Positions 3,144 to 60,305 are shown, counted from the first letter of the stretch. The stretch is 64,000 nucleotides of DNA from Campylobacterota bacterium (GCA_030152305.1 JASKOM010000001.1:329174-393173), one strand, 5' to 3'. Notes: generated by a model not told the origin, from the sequence alone. A program made the numbers and translations.

Positions 3144-3201
3144 CTTTTGATTATTTTAGGTTTTGTATTTTGTGTAGTTTGTTAAAAAGAGGAAAACCTC
3201 A

Positions 3202-3456
3202 TCATTTCCATCTTTTATCTCTTTCTTCTTGTATTTTTATTTCTTGTTTTTCTCTTTGTTGTCTTTCTGCTTTTTCCATATAATAATCTTGCATTATGGC
3301 TTTTTTCTCGTTGCTGTCATATCCTTTACCTGTCAAATTAGGTGGACCTCCATAAGGGTCTTGCTTATATCCAAATTCTTTATACCCATACCCCCACAAG
3401 TTAGAACTTAATCCAACTGCAACAAAGCCTAAAAAGGCTAACTTTTTTATTTCCAT
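3202..3456 (-). CDS. small exported protein, hypothetical
   Basis: 84 aa. Signal-peptide-like N-terminus (MEIKKLAFLGFVAVGLSSNLWG), a Gly/Tyr-rich middle and a charged K/E/Q-rich tail. Confidence 0.5.
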   Translation of the reverse strand: MEIKKLAFLGFVAVGLSSNLWGYGYKEFGYKQDPYGGPPNLTGKGYDSNEKKAIMQDYYMEKAERQQREKQEIKIQEERDKRWK

Positions 3457-3671
3457 TTTTCAAACTCCTATTTGTTAAAAGAAATTTTTTTCACCCGTCA
3501 CAAAACGAGCTGTCAAATTGTAAAAAAAAAAACGGTTTTGTCAAATAATGTTTTAAAATAGAAATTAGGCATAATTTTTCGTGATCAGCTGTTTATAAAT
3601 TTATTTTTAAGTTTGATATTCGCGGTTTTTCTCGATGTTTGATAGAATTTTAAAAATAGAGATTTTTAGGA

Positions 3672-4610
3672 GTGTTCAGTTTGATTAAAAAGAAATATAG
3701 ACTTGTTACTCGTAGCGATATGGACGGGTTAGTCTCTGCTGTTTTATTAAAAGAGATTGGAATTATAAATAGCATTAAGTTTGTTCATCCAAAAGATATG
3801 CAAGATGGCAGAATAGAAATTACTGAAAATGACATAACTACGAATTTGCCTTATAACTCAAAGGCTTATTTAGTTTTTGATCATCACGAAAGTGAAGCTC
3901 AACGAAATAAACGAGCTGATAATTATATTATCGATGCAAAAGCACCTTCGGCGGCAAGAATTGTTTATGATTATTATGGCGGTAAATCGGCTTTTCCTCG
4001 AATTTCAAATGAAATGATGATTGCCGTTGATAAAGCTGATTCAGCTCAATTTACGATGGACGATGTTTTAAATCCAAAAGGTTGGGAACTTTTAAGTTTT
4101 TTAATGGATTCACGAACAGGTTTAGGTAGATTTCGAGAATTCAGAATTGCAAATTACGAATTAATGATGAACCTCATCGATTATTGTGTAACTCATTCGA
4201 TTGATGAAATTCTTGCTCTTCCAGATGTAAAAGAGCGAGTTGATTTATATAAAAAATATGAGAAAGATTTTAAAGATCAAATTTTAAGATGTTCAAAAGT
4301 TTATAAAAATTTAGTTGTTCTTGATTTGCGAAACGAAGAAGTTATTTTCCTAGGGAATAGATTTATGATTTATGCACTTTTTCCAAAAACGAATATTTCG
4401 ATTCATCATATTTGGGGATTTAGACAACAAAATCAGGTTTTTGCAACTGGCAAATCGATATTTAATCGAACTTCTAAAACAAATATTGGTAATTTAATGC
4501 TTAAATATGGCGGTGGTGGTCATGCGAATGCTGGAACTTGCCAAATTGATAGCGATAAAGCCGATGAGGTTTTAGGTGAATTAATTTCTCAAATTACGAT
4601 TGATGGTTGA
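3672..4610 (+). CDS. DHH-family phosphoesterase (exopolyphosphatase-related)
   Basis: Contains SDMDG, DHH (VFDHHESE) and GGGGHANAG motifs. AGGAG (3668-3672) overlaps the GTG at 3672, so the in-frame TTG at 3681 is the more likely start. Confidence 0.7.
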   Translation: MFSLIKKKYRLVTRSDMDGLVSAVLLKEIGIINSIKFVHPKDMQDGRIEITENDITTNLPYNSKAYLVFDHHESEAQRNKRADNYIIDAKAPSAARIVYDYYGGKSAFPRISNEMMIAVDKADSAQFTMDDVLNPKGWELLSFLMDSRTGLGRFREFRIANYELMMNLIDYCVTHSIDEILALPDVKERVDLYKKYEKDFKDQILRCSKVYKNLVVLDLRNEEVIFLGNRFMIYALFPKTNISIHHIWGFRQQNQVFATGKSIFNRTSKTNIGNLMLKYGGGGHANAGTCQIDSDKADEVLGELISQITIDG

Positions 4611-4646
4611 GAAAATAAAAAAATAACAAATAACTAAAAGGTTTAT

Positions 4647-5990: not shown

Positions 5991-5995
5991 AAATA

Positions 5996-7276
5996 ATGGA
6001 ACGGATTTTAAATAATAAAAAAGTTCTTCTCGCTGTTACTGGAAGTATTGCGATTTATAAAAGTTTAGAATTAATTAGACTTTTGACAAAAAGCGGTGCT
6101 TCTGTTCGAGTTATTATGACTGAACATGCAAAAAAATTTATCACTCCGCTAACTTTCGAAACTCTTTCATCAAATTTAGTTTTGCATGAAAATAGCGAAA
6201 GTTGGGCTTCTGATATGAATCATATAAATATTTCACGATGGGCTGATATTTTTGTTATTGCTCCAGCAACGGCAAACACGATAAATAAATTAGCAAATGG
6301 CATCGCTGATAATATTTTATTACAAACGGCTCTAGCTTATAATCGAGAAATTATTATTTCGCCATCGGCAAATACGAACATGATTCATAATACGATTACT
6401 CAAACAAGCTTAAAATTATTGGCTTTGTCTAATTATAAAATTATCTCAACTCAAACGAAAGAACTTGCTTGTAAAACTGAAGGCGATGGTGCAATGGCTT
6501 CACCTGAAGAAATTTTTTTAAATATCGCTAGATCATTATTAAAAAAAGATTTTTGGACAAATCGTCGAGTCGTTATTACTGGAGGCGGAACAATCGAGAA
6601 AATCGATGAGGTTCGATATATTTCTAATTTTTCAAGCGGTAAAATGGGTTCAGCGATAGCAAAAGCTTTATATTTTCGTGGAGCTGATATCTGTTTTATT
6701 TCGAGTCGTTTTCCTGATAATTTGCCAAATGAAAGCTGTAAAATCGAGGTTCAATCAGCTGACGAAATGAACAAATATTTAATCGATTCGATTCGAATTG
6801 CAAAAAAAGGTTTAATTATTAAACCGAAATTAGGCGAAAACGGCGATACGAAATTAATTCAAAAAATGCCATATTTATTTATGAGTTCGGCTGTTGCTGA
6901 TTATAAACCTAAAATACAACATGATGGCAAATTAAAATCGCACCTCATCGGCAATAATTGGAATCTTGAATTAATCGAAAATATCGATATTTTAGAAAAT
7001 TTAGATAAAAACGGAATTCGAGCAATTGGCTTTAAAGCTGAAACAGATAAAAATCGCGGTTCGGAATATGCAAAAAATATGTTAATCAAAAAAGATTTAT
7101 ATGCAGTTTGTTTAAATATTCTCGAAAATAGCGAAAGTTTTGGAACAGATACGAATAAAATCGATATATTTATGCGAAACGGTTTTGAAGAAAGTTTTCC
7201 ATCGCTTTCTAAACTTGAACTTTCATTGCAAATTTTAGATTATTTGGAGGAGATCGAAAAAGATGATAAAAGATAA
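5996..7276 (+). CDS. coaBC: bifunctional phosphopantothenoylcysteine decarboxylase / phosphopantothenate-cysteine ligase
   Basis: 426 aa. N-terminal flavoprotein half (VLLAVTGSIAIYKS, APATANTINKLANGIADN) and a C-terminal CoaB half (ITGGGTIEKIDEVRYISNFSSGKMG). Confidence 0.88.
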   Translation: MERILNNKKVLLAVTGSIAIYKSLELIRLLTKSGASVRVIMTEHAKKFITPLTFETLSSNLVLHENSESWASDMNHINISRWADIFVIAPATANTINKLANGIADNILLQTALAYNREIIISPSANTNMIHNTITQTSLKLLALSNYKIISTQTKELACKTEGDGAMASPEEIFLNIARSLLKKDFWTNRRVVITGGGTIEKIDEVRYISNFSSGKMGSAIAKALYFRGADICFISSRFPDNLPNESCKIEVQSADEMNKYLIDSIRIAKKGLIIKPKLGENGDTKLIQKMPYLFMSSAVADYKPKIQHDGKLKSHLIGNNWNLELIENIDILENLDKNGIRAIGFKAETDKNRGSEYAKNMLIKKDLYAVCLNILENSESFGTDTNKIDIFMRNGFEESFPSLSKLELSLQILDYLEEIEKDDKR

Positions 7277-7850: not shown

Positions 7851-7868
7851 TTGGAGAAATAAATAAAC

Positions 7869-8486: not shown

Positions 8487-8488
8487 CT

Positions 8489-12285: not shown

Positions 12286-12316
12286 ACCTCATCGATAATA
12301 TTTTTTTCGATGAGGT
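12286..12316 (+). terminator. perfect 10-bp inverted repeat hairpin built from two copies of the over-represented motif
   Basis: ACCTCATCGA (12286-12295), an 11-nt loop, then TCGATGAGGT (12307-12316), 24 nt after the transporter stop. There is no clear T-tract after the stem, so terminator function is uncertain. Confidence 0.45.
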
Positions 12317-14048: not shown

Positions 14049-15032
14049 ATGAAAAATCGATTAGTTAGCGGAATGCGACCAACTGGAAAATTACATTTGG
14101 GTCATTATGTCGGAGTTCTTGAAAAATGGAAAGATTTGCAAAATTCACGAGATAGTCTGTTTTTTGTTGCTGATTGGCATGCACTTTCAACAAGTTATGA
14201 AGATCGTTTAAATTTAAAAAATTTATCGATTGATCTTGTTCGAGATTGGATTTCAAGTGGAATTGACCCAGAAAAAGCTTCGTTGTTTATTCAAAGTCAA
14301 GTAAAAGAACATGCTGAATTATATTTAATATTAAATATGATTACTCCGTTGGGTTGGCTTGAACGAAATCCGACTTATAAAGATCAGCTTCAGCAATTAT
14401 CAGGCAAAGATATTAATAGTGCTGGTTTTTTAACTTATCCTGTTTTACAATCGGCTGATGTTTTATTATACGATGCAATCGAAGTCCCAATCGGTGAAGA
14501 TCAACGACCTCATCTAGAAATTTCTCGTGAAATCGCAAGACGATTTAATTTTTTATACGGTTCAAATATTTTTATTGAGCCAAAAGAAGTTTTAAGTGAA
14601 ACTTCAAAATTAAATGGGCTTGACGGTCGAAAAATGAGCAAAAGTTACGGAAACAGTATTTATTTGTCTGATAATAAAGATGAAGTTTTAATTAAATTAA
14701 AAGCTGGAAAAACTGACCCAAATCGAATTAAAAAAACTGATTTAGGAAATCCCGAAGTTTGTATTATTTTTTCGTATCATAAAGAATTTTCAAATATCGA
14801 TGAGGTAAATGAAATTGCTGAAAGTTGCAAAACTGGAAAAATAGGTTGTGTTGATTGCAAAAAAAGATGTTCTGTTTCGATAAATAATTTGCTTGAACCA
14901 ATGCGAGAACGACAAATTAATTTAAATGATAATTATATTATTGATGTTATAGAAAATGGCAAAAATCGAGCAAGTCAAATTGCAAAAAATAAAATGAACG
15001 AAATAAATAAAATAGTTTTTGATGGAAAATAA
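14049..15032 (+). CDS. trpS: tryptophan--tRNA ligase
   Basis: 327 aa. HIGH-type GKLHLGHYVG, KMSKS (GRKMSKSYGN), and the GEDQRPHLEISREIA segment. Confidence 0.9.
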   Translation: MKNRLVSGMRPTGKLHLGHYVGVLEKWKDLQNSRDSLFFVADWHALSTSYEDRLNLKNLSIDLVRDWISSGIDPEKASLFIQSQVKEHAELYLILNMITPLGWLERNPTYKDQLQQLSGKDINSAGFLTYPVLQSADVLLYDAIEVPIGEDQRPHLEISREIARRFNFLYGSNIFIEPKEVLSETSKLNGLDGRKMSKSYGNSIYLSDNKDEVLIKLKAGKTDPNRIKKTDLGNPEVCIIFSYHKEFSNIDEVNEIAESCKTGKIGCVDCKKRCSVSINNLLEPMRERQINLNDNYIIDVIENGKNRASQIAKNKMNEINKIVFDGK

Positions 15033-15035
15033 AAT

Positions 15036-16376
15036 ATGGCTTCTCAAATAATTGATATTGAAAATATGTTTAATAAACGACTTGGCGAACTAAATGTTGT
15101 TTTTCGTCCGCTAACTATTGAAACTATTCAGCTTGGCAGACTTGTCGCTTTTGAACTTGTTAAAGATGCCGATGGCATCAGATTTTATACTTCAACTAAT
15201 ATTCAAGAAGAATTAGGCTATTCGTTAGAAGAATTTTATCTCGATGTTAAAGTTAAAGACTTTTTGGATTTTGAAACTTTCTCGTCGATTATTTCTAAAT
15301 TTGATAAACATGTTAAAAAAATGGAAACCGATTTTATTGATGAATTCAAATTTAAAGATAGTTTCGGTGAAATTCGTTGGGGACATTTATATGTAAATAT
15401 ACAATATCAACGAAGAAGTTGGTCTTCTTTATCAGGCTATGCTCTTGATATAACTAATAAAAAAGTAGAAGAAGAAAAACATAAAGAAGATAAAGCTCAT
15501 CTTGAACGATTGAATAGTTATATCGAAATGCGAATTTCTGATGAGGTCGAACGACGAATGATTCAAGAAAAAATCAGTGAAGCTTCTAAACGACATGTTG
15601 CTGTTAGTGAAACCGTTGAAAAAATTGCTCATCAATGGCGACAACCTTTAAATATAATTTCCTTGCTTTTACAAGATCTTTATTTTAAATTAAATCTCGG
15701 TAATTTATATCCAAAAGGGGAACATGATGCCGAAGTTATTAAAAGTTTATTTTTAACTAAATATAACGAAGTTTATGAAAAAACAAATAATTATATTCAG
15801 TATCTTTCTGAAACTGTTGATGATTTTCGAAAACAGATCTCTCGCAAAGACGAAGAACGAGAATATTTTAATATTAAAGAATTTTTTGATGAAATAGAAG
15901 AATTCGTTGGTCCTTCGTTGGATCGAGGCAAAATCAAATTTGTTAATAATATTCGTTTTGATTATATCGAATTGCACGGTGTTAGAAATAATTTAAAACA
16001 AAGTGTTATTAATGTTATTCATAATGCTTTTGATATTTTTCGAGAAAGAAATATTAATAATCGAGAATTAATCGTTGGTGCATATTTTAATCAACTAAAT
16101 AGAATCGTTATTACTATTGTAGATAATGCAGGTGGAATTCCAAAAGATATTGTTTCGAAAATATTTGATCCATATTTCACAACAAGACATGAAACTCAAG
16201 GCACTGGTTTAGGTTTATATATGTCTCGTGAAATGATTCAACGAGGTTTTGATGGAAATATTTTTGCTTTTAATAGATCTACTTGTTCAAGTTGTCGTGA
16301 AAATTGTTCATCTCGAGAATTAAAGCGAGATGGTGCCTGTTTTTCAATCGAAATCCCTAAATATAAAGAAATATAA
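15036..16376 (+). CDS. sensor histidine kinase (cytoplasmic, PAS-like N-terminus)
   Basis: 446 aa. H-box IAHQWRQPLN, N-box VINVIHNAFD, and G-boxes DNAGGIP and GTGLGLYMS. There is an unusual Cys-rich insertion near the C-terminus. Confidence 0.75.
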   Translation: MASQIIDIENMFNKRLGELNVVFRPLTIETIQLGRLVAFELVKDADGIRFYTSTNIQEELGYSLEEFYLDVKVKDFLDFETFSSIISKFDKHVKKMETDFIDEFKFKDSFGEIRWGHLYVNIQYQRRSWSSLSGYALDITNKKVEEEKHKEDKAHLERLNSYIEMRISDEVERRMIQEKISEASKRHVAVSETVEKIAHQWRQPLNIISLLLQDLYFKLNLGNLYPKGEHDAEVIKSLFLTKYNEVYEKTNNYIQYLSETVDDFRKQISRKDEEREYFNIKEFFDEIEEFVGPSLDRGKIKFVNNIRFDYIELHGVRNNLKQSVINVIHNAFDIFRERNINNRELIVGAYFNQLNRIVITIVDNAGGIPKDIVSKIFDPYFTTRHETQGTGLGLYMSREMIQRGFDGNIFAFNRSTCSSCRENCSSRELKRDGACFSIEIPKYKEI

Positions 16377-16381: not shown

Positions 16382-18061
16382 ATGAACACCTCTATCATTC
16401 TGATTATTATTCTAATTATTATTCTAATTATTTTTATCGTTTCGATTTATCACAGAACTAATAAACAATTTCGAGAACAACGAGATAAGTTAAAAGAACT
16501 TGTTGATGTTTTTGATAAAAATATAATCATGTCCGAAACAGATTTGTACGGTCGAATTACTTATGTCAGTGAAGCTTTTATACAAATTAGCGGTTTTTCT
16601 CATGAAGAATTAATTGGAAAACCTCATCGAATCGTTCGACATGAACATATGCCAAAAGAAGCTTTTAAAGATTTATGGGAAACAGTTCAAAGTGGTAAAA
16701 CATGGAATGGAGAGGTAAAAAATAAACGAAAAGATGGTTCTAACTATTGGGTAAAAAGTTCCGTTTCACCAAAATTGAAAAAAGGCAAAATAATCGGATA
16801 TACATCGATTAGGTCAGATATAACTGCTCAAAAAGTTTCGGAAGAACTTACAAAAGATAATATCGAAAAACAGAAATTTCTAGGTCGATTAATCGATTCT
16901 CTTGAACAAATTGTTGTTGTTACAAACGGTTTAAAAATAAATCAAGTTAATCAAAAGTTTCTTGAATTTTTTGAAATAAAAAATTTAGAAGAATTTAGCA
17001 AACATGGTTTTAATTGTATTTGTGATGTCTTTGAAGGAGATCCGAAAAGTTATATTCAAAAAAAAATAGATGGAACTGATTGGACAGATTATATTTTAAC
17101 TCATCGAGATCAAGAAAATAGTGTTCAAATTTCTCGTCATGACATTGTTCATATTTTTGCCGTAACTGTTACAGCTGTTTTTCATGAAGGCGAAATTAAA
17201 TATGTTGCTATTTTTTCTGATATTACTGAACGAGAAAAACGAGAACGAGAACTTTTAGAAAAACAGAAAATTATTAGCGATTCGCTTACTTATGCTTCAT
17301 ATATTCAAAATGCAATTTTGCCTGATGGTAATTTAAATAATCTGTTTTTTAAAGATAGCTTTTTTTTATGGGAACCTCGAGAATCTGTCGGTGGCGACAT
17401 ATTTTTTATCGATGCATTATCAAGCGATGAGGTGTTATTAATCGTTGCTGATTGCACAGGTCATGGAGTTCCGGGGGCTTTTATTACGATGTTAATTAAA
17501 GCAATTCAGAAACAATTATTAACAGATATTCGCGACGGAATAATTAATCAATCAAAAACTGGTGAAATTCTTTCATATTTTAACCGTGAAATTAAATTAT
17601 TATTAAATCAGGTTGATGGAAAAGTTAGCACAACAAATGTAGGTTTTGATGGAGGAGTCTTTTATTATAATCGAAGTCATGATTTTATAAGCTATTCTGG
17701 AGCGGAAACTCCGCTATTTTATGTCGAATCTGGAACAGTAAAAATGATAAAAGGAGACCGCCAATCAATTGGTTATACAGTCAGCGATGCAAATTTTATT
17801 TTTAAAGAACATTCGTTTTTTACTGGAAAAGTAAATCAATTTTATATTTCGACTGACGGTTTTTATGATCAAGTTGGAGGAGCGAAAAAATTAATGTTCG
17901 GTAAGAAAAAATTACTTGCAATGATCGAAGAACACAAAGATAAACATATGCTTCAACAAAGAGAAATTTTTCATGAAATATTAGTAACTCATCAAGGCAA
18001 ACATGATCGACTTGATGATGTAACTTTTATTGGATTGAAAGTTTTTAATCCCAATATTTAA
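16382..18061 (+). CDS. membrane-anchored PAS domain / PP2C (SpoIIE-type) phosphatase
   Basis: 559 aa. N-terminal TM helix, a PAS S-box (GRITYVSEAFIQISGFSHEELIGKPHRIVRHEHMP...NGEVKNKRKDGSNYWV), and a C-terminal SpoIIE-like region (VGGDIFFID...VADCTGHGVPGAF...DDVTFIGL). Confidence 0.75.
   Translation: MNTSIILIIILIIILIIFIVSIYHRTNKQFREQRDKLKELVDVFDKNIIMSETDLYGRITYVSEAFIQISGFSHEELIGKPHRIVRHEHMPKEAFKDLWETVQSGKTWNGEVKNKRKDGSNYWVKSSVSPKLKKGKIIGYTSIRSDITAQKVSEELTKDNIEKQKFLGRLIDSLEQIVVVTNGLKINQVNQKFLEFFEIKNLEEFSKHGFNCICDVFEGDPKSYIQKKIDGTDWTDYILTHRDQENSVQISRHDIVHIFAVTVTAVFHEGEIKYVAIFSDITEREKRERELLEKQKIISDSLTYASYIQNAILPDGNLNNLFFKDSFFLWEPRESVGGDIFFIDALSSDEVLLIVADCTGHGVPGAFITMLIKAIQKQLLTDIRDGIINQSKTGEILSYFNREIKLLLNQVDGKVSTTNVGFDGGVFYYNRSHDFISYSGAETPLFYVESGTVKMIKGDRQSIGYTVSDANFIFKEHSFFTGKVNQFYISTDGFYDQVGGAKKLMFGKKKLLAMIEEHKDKHMLQQREIFHEILVTHQGKHDRLDDVTFIGLKVFNPNI
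16409..16432 (+). repeat. tandem 12-nt repeat (attctaattatt x2) inside the TM-helix codons
   Basis: Two exact adjacent copies encode the ILIIILIIILII stretch. Confidence 0.6.
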
Positions 18062-20439: not shown

Positions 20440-21660
20440 CTATCGAAAGTTTTTCGAGAATTCTGGATAAGCTTCAACACCAGCTTCATGTTGATCAAGA
20501 CCGTCATATTCGACCTCATCGCTAACTCTAATACCAACAGTAATTTTTAAAATATACCAGACGATAAAAGATGTTACGAAAACGAATAAACCAACTAAAA
20601 CAATACCTTTTAATTGAGCAACAATCGTAACAGAAGGATTAAATATCGCAACTGCAATTGTTCCCCAAATGCCATTTACTAAATGAACAGATAAAGCACC
20701 AACTGGATCATCAATTTTTAATTTATCAAATAATGGAACAGCTAAATAAATTAAAATAGCGGCAACAACACCTTCGATAGTTGCAGCAATCATTCCATTT
20801 GTTGGATCGGCTGTAACAGCAACCAAACCGCCTAAAGCACCATTAAGAACCATTGTTAAATCTACTTTTGCTGTTCGAACATATGTGATTATCATCATTG
20901 CAACAGCACCAGCTGCCGCTGCCATATTTGTTGAAGCAACAACTAAACCGATTGCATCGATGTCAGCTTTTGAACCCATTGCCAATTGACTTCCACCGTT
21001 GAAACCAAACCAGCCGACCCATAAAATAAAAGTTCCAAGAGTTGCTAATGGAAGATTTGAACCTTGAATAGCTCTAATATTTCCATTTTTGCCATATTTA
21101 CCGTTTCTTGCTCCAAGTAATAAAACACCTGCAAGTGCGGCCCAGCCACCAACTGAATGAACAAGAGTTGAACCAGCGAAATCTTTAAATCCTTCGAGAA
21201 TTCCACCTGCTGAAGTTAAAGAAGTTCCCCATATCCAATGTCCTTGAATTGGATAAATAATTCCTGCAAGAATTAAAGTAAAAAACAAAAACGGAATTAA
21301 TTTCATTCGTTCAGCAACAGCTCCAGAAACAACAGAAGCAGAAGTTGCAACAAAAACAACTTGAAAAAAGAAATCAGCATAAACAGAGTGATTTGCATTT
21401 GTAATATCACTCATCATAAAACCTGAACCGATAAAAGCATTTCCTGTGCCATACATTAAGTTATAGCCTAAGAAATAATAAACAACAACAGATATAGCAT
21501 AAATTGCTATATTTTTTAATAACACAACAGAGTTATTTTTTGTTCTTGTTAAACCAGCTTCCAACATTGCAAAACCAGCCGCCATCCACATAACGAGAGC
21601 GGCCATCATGATAAGCAGAAAACTGTCTAAAATATATTTGACATCGGCGAAATTTTCCAT
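20440..21660 (-). CDS. amt: ammonium transporter
   Basis: 406 aa polytopic protein. Has FAGSTLVHSVGGWAAL and the ALSVHLVNGIWGT twin-His signature. AAGGAGG RBS. Confidence 0.9.
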   Translation of the reverse strand: MENFADVKYILDSFLLIMMAALVMWMAAGFAMLEAGLTRTKNNSVVLLKNIAIYAISVVVYYFLGYNLMYGTGNAFIGSGFMMSDITNANHSVYADFFFQVVFVATSASVVSGAVAERMKLIPFLFFTLILAGIIYPIQGHWIWGTSLTSAGGILEGFKDFAGSTLVHSVGGWAALAGVLLLGARNGKYGKNGNIRAIQGSNLPLATLGTFILWVGWFGFNGGSQLAMGSKADIDAIGLVVASTNMAAAAGAVAMMIITYVRTAKVDLTMVLNGALGGLVAVTADPTNGMIAATIEGVVAAILIYLAVPLFDKLKIDDPVGALSVHLVNGIWGTIAVAIFNPSVTIVAQLKGIVLVGLFVFVTSFIVWYILKITVGIRVSDEVEYDGLDQHEAGVEAYPEFSKNFR

Positions 21661-27389: not shown

Positions 27390-27393
27390 AAAC

Positions 27394-37471: not shown

Positions 37472-38542
37472 ATGAAAAATTTATATATTTTAAAATTTTT
37501 TATTAAATATTTTTTAATGACCCTTGGTGGATTAAGTTTATTTTTCGTGATTCTTGATTTCTCAAATGTTTCTAAAGAATTGCCTCAATCTGTAAATTTA
37601 AAAATTTTATATTTTTATTATCAATTTTTATATGCTTCTTCGATTATGTATCCAATTTCATTGGTTTTTGGAGCAATAATTACATTTGGTAAATTAGTCA
37701 AAGATAACATGTTAATAGCATTATATTCTGTTGGTTATTCAAATCGAGATATTTTAACACCTATTTTTTTATCATCAATTGCAATTGTTTTATTATTTAT
37801 TTCTATGCACACAACAGAATATGCTTATGCAAAAAGTAGTGCTGATGATATTTTAAATCGTGGCTCATTGCGAAATACTAATAATTTATTTTTTAAATAT
37901 GATCATAAAAATAAACAAGGTGTTAATTTAGCAAATTATTATGTCTTTTTTTCAAGACTTTATCCATTTCAAAAAGTCTCAAAAGGTGTTCGAATATTTA
38001 GAATAGAAGATGGCAAAATCGCAGAAATTATTCGAGCTGGAAATGCTTATTATAATAATAATAATTGGGTTGTTTCATCTGCTAGAGTTTTAAAAAATGT
38101 TAAAACTTTACAATTGCAACAAGAAGCTATAAAAATGGAAGACAAAAATGAATTTGTCATATTAAAAGGATTTAAACCTGCAATTTTAGAAAGACTTTTT
38201 GAAAGTGAAATCGAATTTAATTTAATTGACCTCATCGAAGCGATGAAACTTTTAAGTCTTCAAGGTTTTTCAACTGATAAAACAAAGGTTTCTTTATATA
38301 ATATTGTTTCTTATCCATTTTTTGCTCCAATATTAATTTTAATAATTTTTAAATTTTTTCCAGTCAGTGGTAGATTTGCAAATCTTAGCTTAGTAATTTT
38401 TTCAGCAATAATAGTTTCATTGTTAATTTGGGGCTTGTTATTTGCAATGGTGAAATTATCTTTTTCTGGAACTTTGATCGGCGAATTTGCAATTAATTTA
38501 CCCGTTATTTTAATGTCAATAATTGCTTTATTTACTGTTTAA
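37472..38542 (+). CDS. LptF/LptG family permease (YjgP/YjgQ)
   Basis: 356 aa. Three N-terminal TMs, a periplasmic beta-jellyroll-sized middle and three C-terminal TMs. The N-terminal pattern is typical of the family. Confidence 0.7.
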   Translation: MKNLYILKFFIKYFLMTLGGLSLFFVILDFSNVSKELPQSVNLKILYFYYQFLYASSIMYPISLVFGAIITFGKLVKDNMLIALYSVGYSNRDILTPIFLSSIAIVLLFISMHTTEYAYAKSSADDILNRGSLRNTNNLFFKYDHKNKQGVNLANYYVFFSRLYPFQKVSKGVRIFRIEDGKIAEIIRAGNAYYNNNNWVVSSARVLKNVKTLQLQQEAIKMEDKNEFVILKGFKPAILERLFESEIEFNLIDLIEAMKLLSLQGFSTDKTKVSLYNIVSYPFFAPILILIIFKFFPVSGRFANLSLVIFSAIIVSLLIWGLLFAMVKLSFSGTLIGEFAINLPVILMSIIALFTV

Positions 38543-42547: not shown

Positions 42548-43063
42548 ATGGCTAAATTAGAAGGCAAAGTCTGGACTTTTGGCGATAATATCGATACAGA
42601 TTTAATTATTGCCGCAAGATATTTAAATACTTCTGATCCTGTGAAACTTGCTCAAAGTGTCATGGAAGATTCACGACCTGAATTTGCAAAATTAGTTCAA
42701 AAAGGTGATATTATTGTTGCTGGTTCTAATTTTGGTTCAGGTAGTTCAAGAGAACATGCACCAATCGCTCTTAAATATGCTGGTGTTTCGGCAGTTGTTG
42801 CAAAAAGTTTTGCACGAATTTTTTATCGAAACTCGTTTAATATGGGTTTGCCAATTTTTGAAATTGATGAAGCCGATGAGGTCGCTGAAAATTCAAGATT
42901 AGCTATCGATATGGATAATGGCGAAATAATTAATTTAGAAAATGGCAAAGTTTATAAATTTAAACCGATTCCTGAATTTATGCAAAAATTAGTCAAATCA
43001 GGTGGCTTAATGAATTATGCTCGTGAAAAAATAGGAGGAAGCTTTGGGAAACAAGCAATATAA
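42548..43063 (+). CDS. leuD: 3-isopropylmalate dehydratase small subunit
   Basis: 171 aa, short archaeal-like type. Contains [15 protein letters not shown] and [14 protein letters not shown]. Confidence 0.88.
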
Positions 43064-45840: not shown

Positions 45841-47994
45841 CTATTTTTCTATAATTGAATTTTTAATTTTTTCTGGTGTCCATTCTGATATTTTGCCAAT
45901 TTCCATTTTTGTCAAATCGATATTATCTAAACCTTTTGCTCTAACATCATCTATCAAGTCTTCTATTTCTTGATCTAAGCCAAAAAGTTTTAAATAATTC
46001 TGAATTCCTCTTTGTAAAAGCACGGCTACTATTATTAATCCGTCTATATTATCAGCTACCGTATTATGTAAATCTGATAAATAAGCTATTTTAAAAATAT
46101 TCGCCATTTTATTATATCTACTTGTTATTTTATAAAATTCAGATAATAAATTATCTATTTTATCTATTTCACCATGAGAGGCTAATTCTTGTGTTTCAAA
46201 GACAACTTCGTTCCAATGTTTTTCAAGATTTTGAACAATCGGATAATTATTTAAATATGGATATTTATCAACCATTGCAAAAATCTGACTTAAATCATTT
46301 TTTTTAGCAATAATTAAAAATTGTTTATGTATTTCTATTTCTGCAAAACTTTCAGAAACATCTTCTATATAAACTCCAACTGTTCTTAAAAAATCTGCTT
46401 TTTCTTTTGCAACATCAAGAGTTCCTTTTTTTATTCCAAGTTTCATATCTATATAAACTTTATCAATCGTATTTATTACTTCTTGATATTCTGGATTTGT
46501 TTCTAGAAATCTATTTTTTGCTACGAGATCTAATAACATTCCATATTTTTTAGTTTTTAAGAAATTTTGAAAAGCCAAATAGCTATTTTTTTGAAGAAAC
46601 AAGTTTTTTATCGTATAAGCTTTATCGTTAATACCGCTAAATTTCGAAAGCATTTCTCTGGCTTCATTTTCACCATTTTTTTCAAATAGTTTTATTTTTG
46701 CTCGTCTAAAATAATCTTGCCAAATTGTATCTAATTTTTTATATGCTTTTGTTTTTTCAAGCGATGGATATTTCGAAACAATGTCATATGCCAAATAATA
46801 ATTTTCTTTTTCGATAAATTTATTTAACATTTCATACTGTTTAAAATCGTTAATTATTACATTTATGATCTCTTTTTTTTCTGGAACTATTTTAAACGGT
46901 TCTAAAAGTAATTCTATTTTTAAAATATCTCCACTGTCGGTATCTAACATTTCTTTACTTGTTTGAAGAGCTTTTTTCCAAACTAGTTCTAGAACTTCAG
47001 CTTCTTTTGTAAATTTCAACATATCATTTTGCATAATCATTCGATAAGCTTCTTGATATTTTTTTGCTTTTATATATTTACTTAAAGCCTGTTGTTCTTC
47101 ACTTGATGAATAAAAATAGATATGTCCTTTTATATCGGAAACGATGAGGTCGCCACTATTTTTTATCGTGATTACATTTGTTATCGATAAAGCATTATTA
47201 ACCGTTATATAACTAAAATTAACTATTTTATGATCTGTTAAATTATATAAAATAACTGTTCCTTTGACGGTTGATAAAAACAAAAACTTTTCATCAGCTG
47301 ATAGGCTCATTTTTGTAATAGTTATATTATTTTCAATCATTATTTTTACTTGTTTGCCATCAGCAGTTCGCCATAAAATAACTCGATCTTCTTTATCAAG
47401 TGAAACAATATATTTATTTCCGATAAATAACATTGCTCTAATTGGTTTTTCATTTTTTATAGTTTGAGCTAATTTCATAGTTAATATATTATAAAGTTGA
47501 ATTATTCCATCTTCACCACCAAAAGCGACAACTATACCTTCTGAATCGAAACGGGCAATATTTATAGATTGGTCTCGTTTTGGAAACGAAAAAACATGAT
47601 TACCTGTTTGTAAATTCCATAAAAAAGCTCGACCGTCTTTACTTGTTGAAACAAAATATTTATTAAAATCATCTGTAACAGTTGAAATAACATGTCCTTG
47701 ATGATAGCCTTTGCTAATTTTATATTTTAGTTCTTTTGATATTGTCGAATATACATCTATGTCTGTCGTATCTGGAACACCATAAACGATAAATTCTCCA
47801 TTTGTAGAAAAAGACACTCTTCGATTCCAAATAGAATTTTCAACAGTTGTCTTTAAGCTATTTAATAATTTATAATCAGCAAGGGAATATTCACGATAAT
47901 TACCACTTTCGTCAATCGTTAGCAATGTTCCATTACTGCTAAGATCCATCGATACAATTCCTTTACTTAATTCAATTTTATTTGTTAAAGTCAT
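45841..47994 (-). CDS. WD40 beta-propeller (N-terminal) plus helical-repeat (C-terminal) protein
   Basis: 717 aa. The first ~300 aa show WD-like blades (e.g. STSKDGRAFLWNLQTG, GGEDGIIQLYNI, DKEDRVILWRT). The remainder is alpha-helical and TPR-like. It lies 18 nt upstream of the CheZ-like gene. Confidence 0.55.
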   Translation of the reverse strand: MTLTNKIELSKGIVSMDLSSNGTLLTIDESGNYREYSLADYKLLNSLKTTVENSIWNRRVSFSTNGEFIVYGVPDTTDIDVYSTISKELKYKISKGYHQGHVISTVTDDFNKYFVSTSKDGRAFLWNLQTGNHVFSFPKRDQSINIARFDSEGIVVAFGGEDGIIQLYNILTMKLAQTIKNEKPIRAMLFIGNKYIVSLDKEDRVILWRTADGKQVKIMIENNITITKMSLSADEKFLFLSTVKGTVILYNLTDHKIVNFSYITVNNALSITNVITIKNSGDLIVSDIKGHIYFYSSSEEQQALSKYIKAKKYQEAYRMIMQNDMLKFTKEAEVLELVWKKALQTSKEMLDTDSGDILKIELLLEPFKIVPEKKEIINVIINDFKQYEMLNKFIEKENYYLAYDIVSKYPSLEKTKAYKKLDTIWQDYFRRAKIKLFEKNGENEAREMLSKFSGINDKAYTIKNLFLQKNSYLAFQNFLKTKKYGMLLDLVAKNRFLETNPEYQEVINTIDKVYIDMKLGIKKGTLDVAKEKADFLRTVGVYIEDVSESFAEIEIHKQFLIIAKKNDLSQIFAMVDKYPYLNNYPIVQNLEKHWNEVVFETQELASHGEIDKIDNLLSEFYKITSRYNKMANIFKIAYLSDLHNTVADNIDGLIIVAVLLQRGIQNYLKLFGLDQEIEDLIDDVRAKGLDNIDLTKMEIGKISEWTPEKIKNSIIEK

Positions 47995-48098: not shown

Positions 48099-49304
48099 TT
48101 ATAAAACTTTAAATTTGTATCCATTGATAGCTAAATTATCTTCAATTTCTTTACGATGTTCAAGACCTTTTATTTCTAAATCAACAGAAACATTAGCATC
48201 GCCATAAGAAATCGATGTAGCTGTGCGATCATAACCTATTTGAACGATATTGGCTCTTAAATCACTAAATATTTTTGTCAAACCCATTAAAGCTCCATGT
48301 TTATCAATCAAAGTTACGATTAATTTTAATTTTCTATTACTTTTAATCAAACCTTTTTCGATAATAATCGATAACATCGTAACATCGATATTTCCACCAC
48401 TAACAACGATTGCAATATTTTTATATTTCGAAATATCAATTTTTCCATATAAAATAGATGCTACACCAACGGCTCCAGCACCTTCAACTACGATTTTGCT
48501 ATTTTCTAATAAATATAATATTGCACCAGCTATTTCTTCGTCATCAACAGAAATTACCTCATCAACATATTTTTTTAAATATTCGAGAGTTATTTTTGAT
48601 CCATTTTTTACAGCAATGCCATCAGCAATAGTTTTTACAGGTCGAGAAACTGGTTCACCAAGTTCAAAACTTTCTTTTAAAGCAGTTGCTCCAGCTGAAA
48701 CGACACCGATAATTTTTACATGAGGTTTAAGATTTTTAATAGCTGAAGCGACACCACTAATTAAACCGCCACCACCAACGGGAACGATAACAGCATCAAA
48801 ATTAACACCACTATTAATAATTTCAATACCGATTGAACCTTGACCAGCGATAACATCGTGATCTTCAAAAGGATGAACAAAAATGGAACTTTGTTCTTCG
48901 GCAAGTTTTAAAGCAAATTTATAAGCATCATCATAAATAGATCCATGTAAAATAACATCAGCACCGTAACTTTTAACACCGTTAATTTTGGTCAAAGGAG
49001 TATTTTCAGGCATAACAATAGTTGTCGGAATAGAATAATATTGACCAGCGAAAGCAACACCTTGAGCATGATTTCCTGCACTTGCTGCAACGATACCTTT
49101 ATTTTTATCGATTTGACTTAAATTAGTAATTCGATTAAAAGCACCTCGTAATTTAAACGAACCTGTATTTTGAAGATTTTCTTTTTTTAAATAAACTCCG
49201 ACACCTGTTCGACTTGAAAGTTTGCTATCGAGCGATAACGGAGTTTCGGCAATAACTTTTGATAAATTTTCTCTAGCTAAGCAAATATCTTGAATAGTTA
49301 TCAA
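48099..49304 (-). CDS. ilvA: threonine ammonia-lyase
   Basis: 401 aa. PLP site NTGSFKLRGA, a GGGGLISG loop and a single C-terminal ACT-like domain. Confidence 0.88.
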   Translation of the reverse strand: MITIQDICLARENLSKVIAETPLSLDSKLSSRTGVGVYLKKENLQNTGSFKLRGAFNRITNLSQIDKNKGIVAASAGNHAQGVAFAGQYYSIPTTIVMPENTPLTKINGVKSYGADVILHGSIYDDAYKFALKLAEEQSSIFVHPFEDHDVIAGQGSIGIEIINSGVNFDAVIVPVGGGGLISGVASAIKNLKPHVKIIGVVSAGATALKESFELGEPVSRPVKTIADGIAVKNGSKITLEYLKKYVDEVISVDDEEIAGAILYLLENSKIVVEGAGAVGVASILYGKIDISKYKNIAIVVSGGNIDVTMLSIIIEKGLIKSNRKLKLIVTLIDKHGALMGLTKIFSDLRANIVQIGYDRTATSISYGDANVSVDLEIKGLEHRKEIEDNLAINGYKFKVL

Positions 49305-49738: not shown

Positions 49739-49935
49739 AATTTACCTTTAATATTTAATTTACAAAATTTTACCAAGATTAAACGATTGCTTCTTAGATA
49801 ACTATATATTTTATTTTTAATTGTAATTTAGTTTATTATGTATCGATGAGGTAATTTTTTCACTTCAAAATAAATTAGATTTTATAATTCCGTTATAATA
49901 AATAAAAATATTATTTATTAAATATAGGAATAATT

Positions 49936-52085: not shown

Positions 52086-52467
52086 GATTATTTATCAAAC
52101 TTTTTGGAACTGCAATTAAAATAAAAAGTTCGCCATCATCATTTGTCCAACTATTTTCAACAAAACTTTCTTTGATGAGGTTGGCTGATTTTTGAGTAAC
52201 AACATAATCACCAAAAGTGCGACCATTTAAATTTGTATATTTTTCAAATTCACTTTTAATGTCAACAGAGATATTTTCACTTAATGAAGCTCGTGCGATC
52301 ATTTTTGCTATTTTTTCTTGTTGTTGAAAATTAATATTTTGGGAAGCTGAACCAATGCCATAAATATGATCCATTCGTTCGCCTTTACCTGTTTTTATCC
52401 AATTTGGAACAGTTTCACTAATTAAAAAATTCGATAAAAATAATGTTGAAAAAAATATATTTTTCAT
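52075..52467 (-). CDS. exported protein, LPP20-like (tentative)
   Basis: 130 aa. Signal peptide. The GIGSA...AKMIARASLSENISVDIKSE pattern is reminiscent of LPP20-family proteins. Confidence 0.35.
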   Translation of the reverse strand: MKNIFFSTLFLSNFLISETVPNWIKTGKGERMDHIYGIGSASQNINFQQQEKIAKMIARASLSENISVDIKSEFEKYTNLNGRTFGDYVVTQKSANLIKESFVENSWTNDDGELFILIAVPKSLINNHEK

Positions 52468-52471: not shown

Positions 52472-53311
52472 TTAGTTTAAAATTCCCAAAAGTTCGTCAG
52501 TATAAATAGAAAAACCGACTGAATTTAAGTTATCGATCGAATAAGATCCGCCTCTTGCATAAACTTTATTTTTGCTAATAAATTTAAAAATTAAGTCTCG
52601 ATAATATTCCATTTGTGTGTAATAAAGCGAGGCAACTTTGATATTTTTATAATCTAAACTTTCACCTAATAAAACAAGATCTTGAAGATCTTTTTTTAAA
52701 AAAACAGGAACAGTTTCAATAAGTTTTTTGACCTCATCAATAGTTTCGAGATATAAAAGAGAATTCAACCAAGAAATATTAAGCGATAAAATTTTGCGAA
52801 TTTCTATATTTTTAAACATAGAAATAGGTAAATTTAATTCAGATGCGATTTTGCGAGGAATTGCAATATTTGACAACTGTAAAAAAGGCTGAAAATCAAC
52901 TTGATTAAATATCGAAATAGAAAGATCTAAAATTTCTTTTAAATCAGAACTACCAATATGTTCAGCACCGATTTGATGTTGTTCAATAGACGGATATCGA
53001 TAAATAGGTTGAATATAAAACCAACGATTATTTTTAGAATTTTTATCAATTCGTTTTAAGGCTAATTTAACAACATCAATAGTCGAATCAGCTCTTAAAT
53101 TCATAGGATAATTATCTCGATTAGTTAAATGAATTAACTTGGTTGATTCGATAGATGCAATTTGATGATATGAAAAAATCGGTGTAACCATTTCTTCGAA
53201 CTTATATTTATAAAATATTTCAGATGCGATTTGTTCAAGTTTTCTTTTTTGTCTTGCCATAGAACCAAAATAAATTTTACTACCTTCAGGAATTTCGTGT
53301 TCAAAAATCAT
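52472..53311 (-). CDS. hisZ: ATP phosphoribosyltransferase regulatory subunit
   Basis: 279 aa, class-II aaRS-like. The N-terminal FEHEIPEGSKIYFGSMARQKRKLEQIASEIF...FEEMVTPIFSY is typical of short HisZ proteins. Confidence 0.55.
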   Translation of the reverse strand: MIFEHEIPEGSKIYFGSMARQKRKLEQIASEIFYKYKFEEMVTPIFSYHQIASIESTKLIHLTNRDNYPMNLRADSTIDVVKLALKRIDKNSKNNRWFYIQPIYRYPSIEQHQIGAEHIGSSDLKEILDLSISIFNQVDFQPFLQLSNIAIPRKIASELNLPISMFKNIEIRKILSLNISWLNSLLYLETIDEVKKLIETVPVFLKKDLQDLVLLGESLDYKNIKVASLYYTQMEYYRDLIFKFISKNKVYARGGSYSIDNLNSVGFSIYTDELLGILN

Positions 53312-54439: not shown

Positions 54440-54452
54440 TTCCCTTTTAAAA

Positions 54453-54492: not shown

Positions 54493-54586
54493 TTAATATT
54501 TTTTTAATAATTATTTTATTAAACTGCTTTTCTACAAACTAAAAAAACTTCAAAATAACTTCTAAACACCAAAGGTTTTATTATTA

Positions 54587-55951: not shown

Positions 55952-55954
55952 TTT

Positions 55955-56434
55955 TTGTTCCACCTCATCACAGATAAAATTAAATTATTAAATTTTTTTT
56001 TATATTTAATAATATTTATTGGTTGTTCAACTCGAGATTATTCAGTTAAAAGTTTATATCTTGTTACGATAAAATCTCCAGAATTAAAATATTCTGATTT
56101 AGGAACTATCTCAAAAAGTGGTGAGGATGTTGCCATAGAATTATTTGCATTTGGCAATAAAATATTAGATTTAAAATTAGAAAAATTAATAACGATCAAC
56201 GGTAATATTTTGCCACCGTCGATATTTTATTCGAAATATTTAAAAACAGATTATCCAGATGAAACGATAAAACAGATATTTTTAGGAAAACCTATATTTG
56301 ACGAAAAAAATATTCAAACAGGTGAAGGTTGGTTTAGTCAAAATATAGAATCTATTTCTTATCGAGTCTCAAATAAAGAGACCCTTTTTAAAGATAGTTC
56401 AAAAAATATAATTATTCGTTTTGTGAAACAGTAA
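55955..56434 (+). CDS. lipoprotein, hypothetical
   Basis: 159 aa with a TTG start. Lipobox LIIFIGCS. Confidence 0.45.
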   Translation: MFHLITDKIKLLNFFLYLIIFIGCSTRDYSVKSLYLVTIKSPELKYSDLGTISKSGEDVAIELFAFGNKILDLKLEKLITINGNILPPSIFYSKYLKTDYPDETIKQIFLGKPIFDEKNIQTGEGWFSQNIESISYRVSNKETLFKDSSKNIIIRFVKQ

Positions 56435-58034: not shown

Positions 58035-58528
58035 TATTTGTTTATTCCATTTCTATTAATCCAATCAATAATTTCAATTGGATCATTTAAATTTAAGACT
58101 TTCATCTCATTTGATATTTTATATTTTTTTAAATCAATCGAATCATCAATTGCAATACAATTAATAAAATCCAAATAATCTAAATCTATTTCGTTTCTGA
58201 ATATGCCTATTCTTGGCAACTGAAGATATTTCAATCCTTCGACTAATAAATAATCATATTTATTTTTTTCAAGTTCAATAATATTCATTGTATCTGTTGG
58301 CGAGTGTTTAAAACTTGTTGTTCGTATTGAAGACAATACATAAACATCTGAACCTGTTTTAAAAAATTTATCACTATCTTTTCCAGAAACATCAAAGACG
58401 GCTTTATCTTTTGGATCGTTTTTTATAATTAAAACTTTATATTTATTTTTTATTAAAATATTTGCTATTTTTTCTATTAATGTTGTTTTTCCGCTATTTG
58501 AGCGACCTGTAAAAGCAACAGCTATCAA
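58034..58528 (-). CDS. mobB: molybdopterin-guanine dinucleotide biosynthesis protein B
   Basis: 164 aa. The P-loop FTGRSNSGKTTLIEKI is typical of MobB. Confidence 0.75.
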   Translation of the reverse strand: MIAVAFTGRSNSGKTTLIEKIANILIKNKYKVLIIKNDPKDKAVFDVSGKDSDKFFKTGSDVYVLSSIRTTSFKHSPTDTMNIIELEKNKYDYLLVEGLKYLQLPRIGIFRNEIDLDYLDFINCIAIDDSIDLKKYKISNEMKVLNLNDPIEIIDWINRNGINK

Positions 58529-58611
58529 AATTTCAACCTTTTTTTTGAGTTGTTTAATTTTAACAGAAAAATTAAAATAGTTTTTGTGTGTTGAATAAGT
58601 TTTTTATACCT

Positions 58612-58641
58612 ACTTCAAAAGTTTAAATATACTTTTGAAGT
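58612..58641 (-). terminator. perfect 11-bp hairpin downstream of the MCP gene
   Basis: ACTTCAAAAGT (58612-58622) pairs with ACTTTTGAAGT (58631-58641) around an 8-nt loop. The flanking T-tract is poor on the minus strand. Confidence 0.45.
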
Positions 58642-58691
58642 GTTCGGTATTTGTATTTAATTGTTAGTTAAATTAAATGTGAGATTAAATA

Positions 58692-60305
58692 TTAATGTTT
58701 ATGATTATGTTCATCGTTTTGCGATGAGGTTTCATTTGATTGTGTAGCATTGGCTTGTTCTTTTGCTCTTTCTTCAGCTCGTTTTAGTTTTTCTCGCTCA
58801 AGTCTCGAACTTGCCATTACCATTTTTTCGTTAGCTATTCTTTGGGCATCTTCTGCTCGGCTTTCTTCAAGCATTTTGTCCATAAGTTGGAATAACTGTT
58901 CACTTGCTTCTTCAACTTCTGTAAATAAACTAATTAATTTTTTTCGTTGAGGAATTTCAACAGTTCCACCAGCAAGTTCTATTGCTTTCAATATATGAAT
59001 AACTTCATGAACATGATCATGAATTGTTTTATGCGGATTAATAATTAATTTATATGATTCAGTATTTCCTAATCTAATTAAACCCTCACTTGAATACCAT
59101 CTACCAAAACGACAATTCATATGATCTGTAAAATGAGCATGATTATTTTTTTCAACAATTACATCAAATGCGGCTCGTTTAAATAATAAATGGTCAATTT
59201 TTGCAAGAATCAAGAATACTTTATTTTCCATTTTATTTGTTTCGTGAAGAATATAAGCTGTTTTAGTATCAAAAATATTTAATTGATTTTTAAATTTAGA
59301 AATTTCACCAGATGAGAATTCAGCAATTTCAGTCATTTTTTCTGAAGCCTGTTGAATTCGACCTGTTTCTTGTTGAAGTGTTTGAATAGAAATAGAAATT
59401 TCAGCTGTTGCTTTTTGAGTTTTTTCAGCAAGTTTTCGAACCTCATCAGCAACAACGGCAAAACCTCTACCATGTTCGCCAGCTCGTGCGGCTTCAACAG
59501 CAGCATTTAAAGCTAATAAGTTAGTTTGTTCAGCAACATCTTTAATTAATTTAACAACGGCATCAATATCAACAGCTTTTTGAACAAGACTATCAACAGT
59601 ATTATCATTTTCTTGAATATAACCAATTAATACACCTAAATCAGAAGCTATTTTTTCGATAATAAGCATATTTTTAGCTGAATCTTCGACCATGCTTTTT
59701 GATTCAAAGCCCAAAATAGATATTTCGCTTGTTGTTTCAGCTAATTGAGTTTGAATAGTTGTAAAGTTTTGAATAAATTTTTGTCCGCCACTTGAAACAT
59801 CACTTAAATGAGAAATAAATTTTGAATTAATTTCATCAGAAAATTCTCGTTCCATGACATTAATAGATCGATTAATAAACATACCTGATCGAGCAAGAGC
59901 AGTATTTAAACCAGTGATTTGAACTTTTCTAAAGAAGAGTTGTCGCCCAGCATAATCAACGGCAGTATTGATTTCTCGCATAAAGCTTTCGATTTGGTCA
60001 AGAAGATTATTAACATTCCATGATAAATCACCAAGATGACCAGTAAGTTTTTCACCTGTGTCTCTAACTTCGAAATTACCACGAACGGCATTAGCGAGAA
60101 CACGAGATGTATTAGCAACTGTTTTTTGTTCTTTACTAATAAAATAAAAACCTAAAACAGCAACTAAAATATTTAAAAGATTAAAACTAAGGGATAATAT
60201 ATTAAATCCCTGAAGAGTATAAACAGAAATAGCTCCTGTAACAACAATTAAAATATGAGCTAAATTAACTTTAGCTGTATTGGAGATCGAAGATAAATTT
60301 GTCAT
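58692..60305 (-). CDS. methyl-accepting chemotaxis protein with C-terminal CZB (zinc-binding) domain
   Basis: 537 aa. Two N-terminal TMs, a HAMP-like region, the signalling hairpin ([38 protein letters not shown]), then H-x-containing helices with [10 protein letters not shown] (the CZB H..C..G.W motif). E/K-rich tail. GAAGGAG RBS. Confidence 0.82.

Follow-up and report, generated by a model that had tools for sequence, protein, structure and literature searches.

An evenly spaced, strand-balanced octamer in an uncultured Campylobacterales clade: a possible DNA uptake or self-recognition sequence

Introduction

Why would a bacterial chromosome carry 33 exact copies of one octamer within 64 kb? 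The question is raised by a 64,000-nt stretch of DNA from a Campylobacterota bacterium (GCA_030152305.1, JASKOM010000001.1:329174-393173; hereafter, the window, with positions counted from its first nucleotide), in which the word GATGAGGT recurs on both strands. An initial annotation of the window saw in it a candidate for the uptake signal sequences (USS) and DNA uptake sequences (DUS) of naturally competent bacteria, with a Chi-like site, a nucleoid-protein site or a methylation- or restriction-related word as alternatives. To our knowledge, sequence-specific DNA uptake is known from two families only, Pasteurellaceae and Neisseriaceae, both studied for decades; the DUS of Neisseriaceae is bound by the minor pilin ComP, and the origin of uptake sequences, through selfish drive or through selection, is still debated. 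Helicobacter and Campylobacter are naturally transformable, so that a competence-linked signal is plausible in this phylum. The literature that we searched contains no mention of GATGAGGT in a relevant context and describes no uptake sequences for environmental Campylobacterota.

Here, we explored the abundance, coding context, distribution and spacing of the word in the window and in related contigs. We put at about an even chance the interpretation that GATGAGGT is a clade-specific ‘self’ tag acting at the DNA level, that is, an uptake or self-recognition sequence of the USS/DUS kind, possibly read directionally.

Results

An exact search of both strands recovered 33 copies of GATGAGGT (17 plus and 16 minus), which are identical in position and orientation to those of the initial annotation. 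Dinucleotide-preserving shuffles of the window contain 0.53 copies on average and 3 at most, and Markov models trained on the window itself predict 0.6–0.7 copies (orders 1 and 2), 1.4 (order 3) or 2.9 (order 4). Thus, the annotated over-representation is real, amounting to 11–60-fold depending on the null model, and GATGAGGT is by a wide margin the most over-represented 8-mer of the window (z = 27 under the order-3 model); expectations under orders 5 and 6 approach the observed count because these models already contain the word. The edges of the word are sharp, GATGAGG occurring 34 times and ATGAGGT 35 times in the window. Immediately 5′ of the word stands C (18 copies), T (14) or, once, A, in agreement with the annotated preference for C or T (32 of 33), and the word with its 5′ base is written YGATGAGGT. 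In 113 pooled clade copies, position −1 is never G and T is preferred at −2 and +1; these flanks carry no information outside −2 to +2 and include no AT-tracts.

The coding frames of the window copies, which we found as annotated, comprise 15 sense copies read as GAT-GAG-GTN, 14 antisense copies (8, 3 and 3 by frame) and 4 that are intergenic or straddle a stop codon. Such a predominance of a single frame, Asp-Glu-Val in 15 of the 33 copies, could be taken to mean that the word is a by-product of codon-pair or peptide bias. However, counts over six clade loci point the other way. Amino-acid frequencies predict 11 Asp-Glu-Val tripeptides, yet there are 55, a 5-fold excess, and 50 of these 55 (91%) are spelled GAT-GAG-GTN, where codon usage predicts 21%; likewise, xAC-CTC-ATC spells 20 of 115 [HNDY]-Leu-Ile tripeptides, compared with an expectation of ~0.9%, and the antisense copies impose the rare codons CTC and ATC. 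Together, the tripeptide excess, the skewed spelling and the rare antisense codons indicate that selection acts on the DNA word and reshapes proteins in the process, as the initial annotation had proposed: GATGAGGT is kept although it runs counter to codon usage and requires amino-acid changes.

A word driven by coding behaves differently. The 5-mer GGCGG is also over-represented in the window (33 copies against 5.6 expected) and strand-balanced, but it is strongly sense-biased (26 of 30), with 24 of 33 copies in the sense frame GGC-GGN; its excess is a Gly-Gly codon-pair effect rather than a DNA-level signal, so that it serves as an internal control. By contrast, genic copies of GATGAGGT across the clade are balanced between sense (53) and antisense (49), the antisense copies of the window fall in all three frames, and the minority codons GAG, CTC and ATC are forced. 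Nor does the word look like the remnant of a mobile repeat, such as a miniature inverted-repeat transposable element (MITE) or a repetitive extragenic palindromic (REP) element: we found no extended or palindromic unit, the flanks are uninformative beyond two positions, and 90% of the copies lie inside genes, in unrelated housekeeping functions. Frames, flanks, sense/antisense balance and codon spelling thus effectively refute a coding artefact or mobile repeat, an explanation to which we attach next to no credence.

Which lineages carry the word? Clade contigs were gathered through homologous proteins and their encoding contigs, plus one metagenome search with CoaBC. The HslU protein of the window is 60–65% identical to those of named Campylobacterota (Sulfurovum, Nitratiruptor, Hydrogenimonas, Wolinella and Helicobacter), and a search of genome contigs with it yielded only relatives of at most 61% identity. 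Closer relatives, with HslU 66–82% identical, come from environmental metagenomes, and the sole label that they bear is “Campylobacterales bacterium”. In seven independent contigs, GATGAGGT is again the top 8-mer: L082 (HslU 82% identical to that of the window; GC content 28%; 15 copies in 19.2 kb), L083 (71%; GC 29%; 20 in 21.3 kb), L084 (70%; GC 30%; 14 in 21.3 kb), L085 (69%; GC 35%; 15 in 14.6 kb), L122 (70%; GC 34%; 9 in 14.4 kb), L119 (66%; GC 30%; 6 in 11.2 kb) and L089, which was placed by CoaBC (67%; GC 38%; 16 in 13.9 kb). Two further contigs also carry it, namely L086, with the same HslU as L085 (69%; GC 34%; 6 copies in 5.9 kb), and L090, a close relative of L089 (CoaBC 66%; GC 39%; 7 in 4.6 kb). 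Outside this group the word disappears: L087 and L088 (HslU 64%) have one copy and none, L091–L099 (CoaBC 52–65%) have 0–2 copies, and in nine loci of named Campylobacterota, including Sulfurovum, Sulfurimonas, Nitratiruptor, Campylobacter and Helicobacter, it is essentially absent. No other 8-mer of comparable strength was found in these sister and named loci. The word is thus present at HslU identities of at least 66% and absent at 64% or less; it is a conserved character of one uncultured, family-level clade of Campylobacterales, independent of GC content, and it is the same in every member examined, with no dialects seen.

Comparison of orthologs shows that the sites are long-lived yet able to move. 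Both sites of coaBC occupy identical alignment columns in all 4 clade members compared. The sense site encodes I-D-E-V-R, where most sister lineages have D-D-V and one has D-E-V in a different spelling; the antisense site encodes S-H-L-I-G, with unrelated residues in the sister lineages, relative to which the CoaBC peptide is remodelled locally. In hslU, by contrast, the window and L082 have no copy, whereas L083, L084 and L085 have differently placed ones that arose through point substitutions altering amino acids, often in variable linkers. The HslU proteins of L083 and L084 are 89% identical, yet the single copy in each gene sits elsewhere, which suggests compensatory relocation of the site with overall spacing retained. 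Among reciprocal-best gene pairs, 12 of ~27 sites are shared.

For strand and spacing statistics, we pooled eight independent loci (180 kb, 128 copies), leaving out L121 (99.95% identical to L084), L086 (similar to L085) and L090 (similar to L089). The copies divide into 65 plus and 63 minus, each of the eight loci being balanced, and the log-likelihood is higher by 9.6 natural-log units for a 50:50 model than for one with a 70:30 skew whose direction is left free. The lack of skew that was first noted from the 17:16 split of the window therefore extends to the pooled set, in which no locus shows the strong polarity, directed towards dif, of FtsK-orienting polar sequences (KOPS) or another skewed-octamer pattern; such a balance speaks against membership among Chi, KOPS and the other skewed octamers, which are defined by their polarity.

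The word occurs about once per 1–2 kb, and its placement is far from random. The standard deviation (SD) of normalised gaps is 0.73 for all copies, against 0.86–0.93 for random placement, and falls to 0.48 and 0.53 for same-strand gaps, against 0.865 ± 0.10, values reached in none of 5000 simulations; in the window, same-strand gaps average 3.4–3.75 kb with a coefficient of variation of 0.47–0.49. Orientation switches at 88 of 120 adjacent pairs (63.3 ± 5.4 expected, z = 4.6). Strict alternation of plus and minus copies was considered as the primary feature and rejected: circular shifts of the minus series give 73.4 ± 3.6 switches against 78 in the six loci used (p = 0.13), so that alternation follows from the even spacing that each strand has on its own. 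The two orientations behave as independent self-avoiding signals, and avoidance on the same strand without avoidance of the opposite strand implies that the reader senses the orientation of the word.

Self-avoidance of this kind is the exact prediction of a one-directional reader such as the helicase-nuclease AddAB. As a Chi-like regulatory sequence, 5′-GATGAGGT-3′ would be read on one strand by AddAB as it moves along from a DNA end, whereupon the enzyme would attenuate degradation and load RecA; even tiling of both orientations would let either end of a two-ended break soon meet a correctly oriented site, and DNA devoid of the word would be degraded. The window encodes an AddB-like PD-(D/E)XK helicase-nuclease subunit (38549..40900, plus strand), the candidate reader under this scenario, while AddA is not in the window. 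GATGAGGT is also short, purine- and G-rich and compact, without extended flanks, much as the Chi sequences of RecBCD and AddAB (GCTGGTGG, GAAGCGG, GCGCGTG) are over-represented, G-rich, asymmetric words of 5–8 nt that are read in one orientation, and the literature searched yielded no Chi sequence for the AddAB of Campylobacterota. However, all characterised Chi sequences that we know of (those of E. coli, Bacillus, Staphylococcus and Lactococcus) are co-oriented with replication, whereas a skew is seen in none of our eight loci. In 200 kb of E. coli MG1655, Chi is skewed between strands (43:27) and its same-strand gaps are random (SD 0.93 and 1.03), unlike the even gaps of GATGAGGT. AddAB is general in Campylobacterota, yet the sister lineages lack a comparably dominant word; pairs forming hairpins after genes are foreign to Chi; and E. 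coli Chi is only ~6–7-fold over-represented (PMC1939737), compared with 11–60-fold here. The Chi-like alternative of the initial annotation thus retains the orientation-dependent spacing and the AddB-like gene on its side but is weakened on all these other counts, and we consider it unlikely. No second, skewed Chi candidate was found within the window.

Some sister loci contain moderately over-represented words that are skewed between strands, although the counts are small: GCTGGATT in L087 and L088 (5:1 and 3:1), TCTCACGC in L092 (6:1) and TGAGGACG in L097 (0:7). These words seem better candidates for a classical Chi than GATGAGGT.

Even tiling of each orientation by an exact 8-mer with very sharp edges, together with the conserved positions in coaBC, would also suit a binding site for a chromosome-organising or DNA-tracking protein (a translocase or SMC-type barrier or loading site, or a nucleoid protein) that is selected independently of DNA exchange. 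Karlin and colleagues, as cited in PMC1939737, suggested such roles for evenly spaced USS. Nevertheless, no known bacterial system of this type uses a non-palindromic word about once per 2 kb without replichore polarity, no candidate protein was identified, and the post-gene inverted pairs and the clade restriction are explained no better than by uptake, so that this option appears to us decidedly improbable, somewhat more so than Chi.

Inverted pairs of the word form hairpins just after genes. In the window, the pair ACCTCATCGA ... TCGATGAGGT (12286..12316), made of copies 12286(−) and 12309(+), lies 3′ of a Na/Pi-cotransporter gene, starting 24 nt past the stop codon; as the initial annotation had it, the pair folds into a hairpin, with a 10-bp stem and −15.3 kcal/mol (z = −5.2). 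Two further pairs are found in L082, one between convergent genes (16558–16589) and one 3′ of the IMPDH gene (19106–19140). The three independent pairs have stems of 8–10 bp, −15 to −18 kcal/mol and z = −4 to −5, the T run 3′ of the hairpins being weak or absent, and 6 of the 11 intergenic copies sit in inverted pairs.

The remaining copies of the window are spread over ordinary chromosomal genes, in a stretch that is 92% coding and includes hslU, coaBC, a trpS-type synthetase gene, amt, yidC, hemD, pth, lptF/G, addB-like, leuB/leuD-like, rho, fbp, chemotaxis and two-component genes; in scans against Rfam and for tRNAs, the window gave no matches. Several genes carry one antisense and one sense copy. 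In the 312-aa gene 3672–4610, these are 4171..4178(−), in the xAC-CTC-ATC frame, and 4563..4570(+), read as GAT-GAG-GTN, one of the two being common to the L082 ortholog; in coaBC, they are 6942..6949(−), read as His-Leu-Ile (CAC-CTC-ATC), and 6605..6612(+), read as Asp-Glu-Val. The same arrangement is seen in a tRNA-synthetase class Ib gene (14049–15032; antisense 14507..14514(−), sense GAT-GAG-GTN 14799..14806(+)), a PAS/phosphatase gene (16382–18061; antisense 16621..16628(−), sense 17426..17433(+)), a FixG-like gene (31658–33016; antisense 31938..31945(−), sense 32873..32880(+)) and a methyl-accepting chemotaxis protein gene (58692–60305(−); antisense 58723..58730(+) at its 3′ end, sense 59440..59447(−)).

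Single sense copies lie in genes for a histidine kinase (15540..15547(+), gene 15036–16376), an ammonium transporter (20513..20520(−), gene 20440–21660(−)), a Jag-like protein (28522..28529(−), gene 28074–28868(−)), the product of gene 33072–35306(−) (34495..34502(−)), pth (37229..37236(+), gene 36893–37462), the AddB-like nuclease (39863..39870(+)), a leuD-like product (42875..42882(+), gene 42548–43063), a pyridoxal-phosphate enzyme (48556..48563(−), gene 48099–49304(−)) and a hisZ-like product (52731..52738(−), gene 52472–53311(−)). Antisense copies are found in hemD (27667..27674(+), gene 27394–28062(−)), yidC (30250..30257(+), gene 28875–30461(−)), the lptF/G gene (38229..38236(−), gene 37472–38542), a porin-like gene (41679..41686(−), gene 41019–42524), a WD40 gene (47143..47150(+), gene 45841–47994(−)), gene 52075–52467(−) (52174..52181(+)) and the very start of open reading frame (ORF) 55955–56434 (55962..55969(−)). 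Copy 49845..49852(+) is intergenic, and 3196..3203(−), which overlaps the end of a short open reading frame on the minus strand (3202–3456), is effectively so.

Two parts of the window are poor in the word. A gene in the part of lowest GC content (22%), at 21839–26764(−), encodes a 1641-aa protein in which a DEAD/DEAH-box helicase is fused to a UvrD/REP-type helicase; its sole copy, 22192..22199(+), is antisense near the 3′ end, and the interval 22192–27667 contains no internal GATGAGGT. This gene may be horizontally acquired and defence-like, in which case its near lack of the word would fit a marker of ‘own’ DNA. Positions 1–3195 are also free of GATGAGGT and encode a KilA-N domain protein (2216–2683(−)) beside small unannotated ORFs, possibly a prophage remnant. 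The KilA-N protein has no relative among viral contigs, and a search of those contigs with the inverted-pair pattern gave 42 matches, none combining low GC with a high density of GATGAGGT; with at most 6 copies each and with mostly high GC among the top 15, these matches look like chance.

The gene content also bears on the last alternative of the initial annotation, a restriction-modification (R-M) or methylation word, which would be the target of a Type III, IIG, IIL or orphan methyltransferase and serve as an epigenetic or uptake-discrimination mark. Methylation of RAATTY is such an uptake-discrimination mark in Campylobacter jejuni, and an asymmetric, strand-specific word with orientation-dependent behaviour could be read in this manner. 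The relative L082 carries a gene for a D12-class (Dam-family) N6-adenine methyltransferase (5750–6751) among glycosyltransferase genes, without any linkage to GATGAGGT; CtsM, the uptake-discrimination methylase of C. jejuni, is an N6-adenine methyltransferase as well. Conversely, R-M targets are normally avoided, whereas GATGAGGT is enriched 11–60-fold; eight fully specified bases are long for such enzymes, the window contains no R-M genes, and the even spacing would be left without a reason. This alternative thus finds no support, and we regard it as very improbable.

Several other features were noted. Two further words are moderately over-represented in the window, the palindrome CAATTG (100 against 47 expected) and CTATTTT/AAAATAG (97 against 43). 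The 717-aa WD40 beta-propeller protein (45841–47994(−)) has Pfam matches to eukaryote-type propellers only, and a nearby gene (44208–44699(+)) encodes a small protein whose C-terminal domain is CiaD-like. Directly 3′ of hslU in L084 (11435–13496), a gene for a ZorA-like/MotA-ExbB protein is followed by one for an OmpA-domain protein, the two perhaps forming a defence pair akin to Zorya or else a motor/stator pair, and in L085 hslU adjoins a T2SS-F-like gene.

Discussion

A compact, enriched word that is balanced between strands, evenly spaced, placed in particular frames within genes, paired in gene-end hairpins and restricted to one clade matches the uptake sequences. Even spacing and the absence of an orientation bias are recorded for these in PMC7811141, and even spacing of USS also by Karlin (1996), as cited in PMC1939737; the latter source likewise gives no orientation bias for USS and DUS, and it places 65% and 35% of copies inside ORFs and ~10% in inverted repeats. 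Pairs that form hairpins have been described, as has an over-abundance of close USS pairs on opposite strands (PMC7811141, PMC1852404), and the spacing of uptake sequences matches conversion or recombination tracts (PMC2397512). The USS of Pasteurellaceae (AAGTGCGGT / ACAAGCGGT) share with GATGAGGT a core that is short, exact and tens- to hundreds-fold over-represented, a density of about one per 1–2 kb, equal strands without replication skew, significantly even spacing, a mostly intragenic location in favoured frames that also shapes the proteome, inverted pairs as post-gene hairpins, and family-wide conservation with positions partly kept. Unlike the USS, GATGAGGT is unrelated in sequence, belongs to the phylum Campylobacterota, and lacks both AT-rich flanking segments and enriched one-mismatch forms. 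With the DUS of Neisseriaceae (GCCGTCTGAA), it has in common a compact, clade-specific motif without extended flanks, spacing comparable to the length of recombination tracts (PMC2397512), inverted-pair terminators and strong conservation in core genes. However, only 35% of DUS copies in N. gonorrhoeae are inside genes (PMC1939737), compared with ~90% for GATGAGGT; ~5% of GATGAGGT copies are in terminator pairs, against the ~10% of uptake sequences that form inverted repeats (PMC1939737); and no dialects distinguish the clade members. A likeness of another sort is to the highly iterated palindrome HIP1 (GCGATCGC) of cyanobacteria, a lineage-specific octamer of unknown function that is enriched by orders of magnitude and pervasive in genes; HIP1, however, is palindromic and overlaps a methyltransferase site, whereas GATGAGGT is asymmetric and its orientations act as separate signals.

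Several observations weigh against an uptake sequence. Enrichment of mismatched forms, the graded signature of uptake-bias drive, is not seen: one-mismatch variants number 28 in the window against ~24 expected, whereas mismatched forms of the Actinobacillus pleuropneumoniae uptake sequence are ~11-fold enriched (947 against 86; PMC1939737). Spacing depends on orientation, only 3 pairs closer than 500 bp having the same orientation against 33 with opposite orientations (p = 2e-7, eight loci). Same-orientation copies thus exclude each other within 500 bp, unlike the USS of Haemophilus influenzae, where uptake is reported to be orientation-independent (PMC1939737) and 23% of the sites have a neighbouring USS within 100 bp (PMC7811141). 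Intergenic copies (n = 11, ~10%) barely exceed the non-coding fraction of 7%, and the 64-kb window contains no recognisable competence genes. The uptake proposal of the initial annotation is thus partly supported: density, strand symmetry, even spacing, hairpins and clade restriction agree with it, whereas the lack of enriched near-miss forms and the dependence of spacing on orientation are not what a simple USS model predicts.

If GATGAGGT is nevertheless an uptake or self-recognition tag, we infer a reader tied to transformation or recombination. A component of the natural-transformation machinery, perhaps a DNA receptor of the cell surface or periplasm, for example a minor pseudopilin, or else a protein of the ComEA/ComH type, would bind the word, resulting in preferential uptake of conspecific DNA. 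Recombination of the imported fragments, through molecular drive, selection for conspecific exchange or both, would spread and maintain GATGAGGT, and its density would settle near one copy per recombination tract as redundant close copies decay, while inverted pairs 3′ of genes would double as hairpin terminators. One possibility raised by the spacing is that uptake or translocation runs directionally from the word, in which case each orientation would be tiled independently.

More tentatively, and with a probability that we would put well short of even, GATGAGGT might be neither an uptake sequence nor a Chi in the classical sense but a chromosomal signal of a new class. Such a signal would be an asymmetric 8-mer of which both orientations are independently and evenly tiled over the entire chromosome, with no replication polarity, and which is read by a directional machine. 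The examples that we propose are a ‘pac-like’ start for polar DNA uptake or translocation and a self-marker that halts a nuclease or translocase arriving from either side of a two-ended break.

Whatever the reader, the exactness of the word, whose near-miss forms are not enriched, and its orientation-specific self-avoidance constrain models of how such words evolve and are read. In practice, this uncultured lineage can be binned and tracked with GATGAGGT as a simple diagnostic k-mer, which, once isolates exist, could guide the design of transforming DNA. Should AddAB prove to be the reader, Campylobacterota would gain their first Chi sequence, which would also be the first without a replication skew; should the word not be an uptake sequence, it would be a new kind of evenly tiled chromosomal tag that is read by orientation. 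If, however, GATGAGGT is an uptake sequence, it would be a third, independently evolved instance, in a new phylum, with an unrelated word and new properties, providing a natural replicate, in free-living bacteria, for the debate on drive versus selection.

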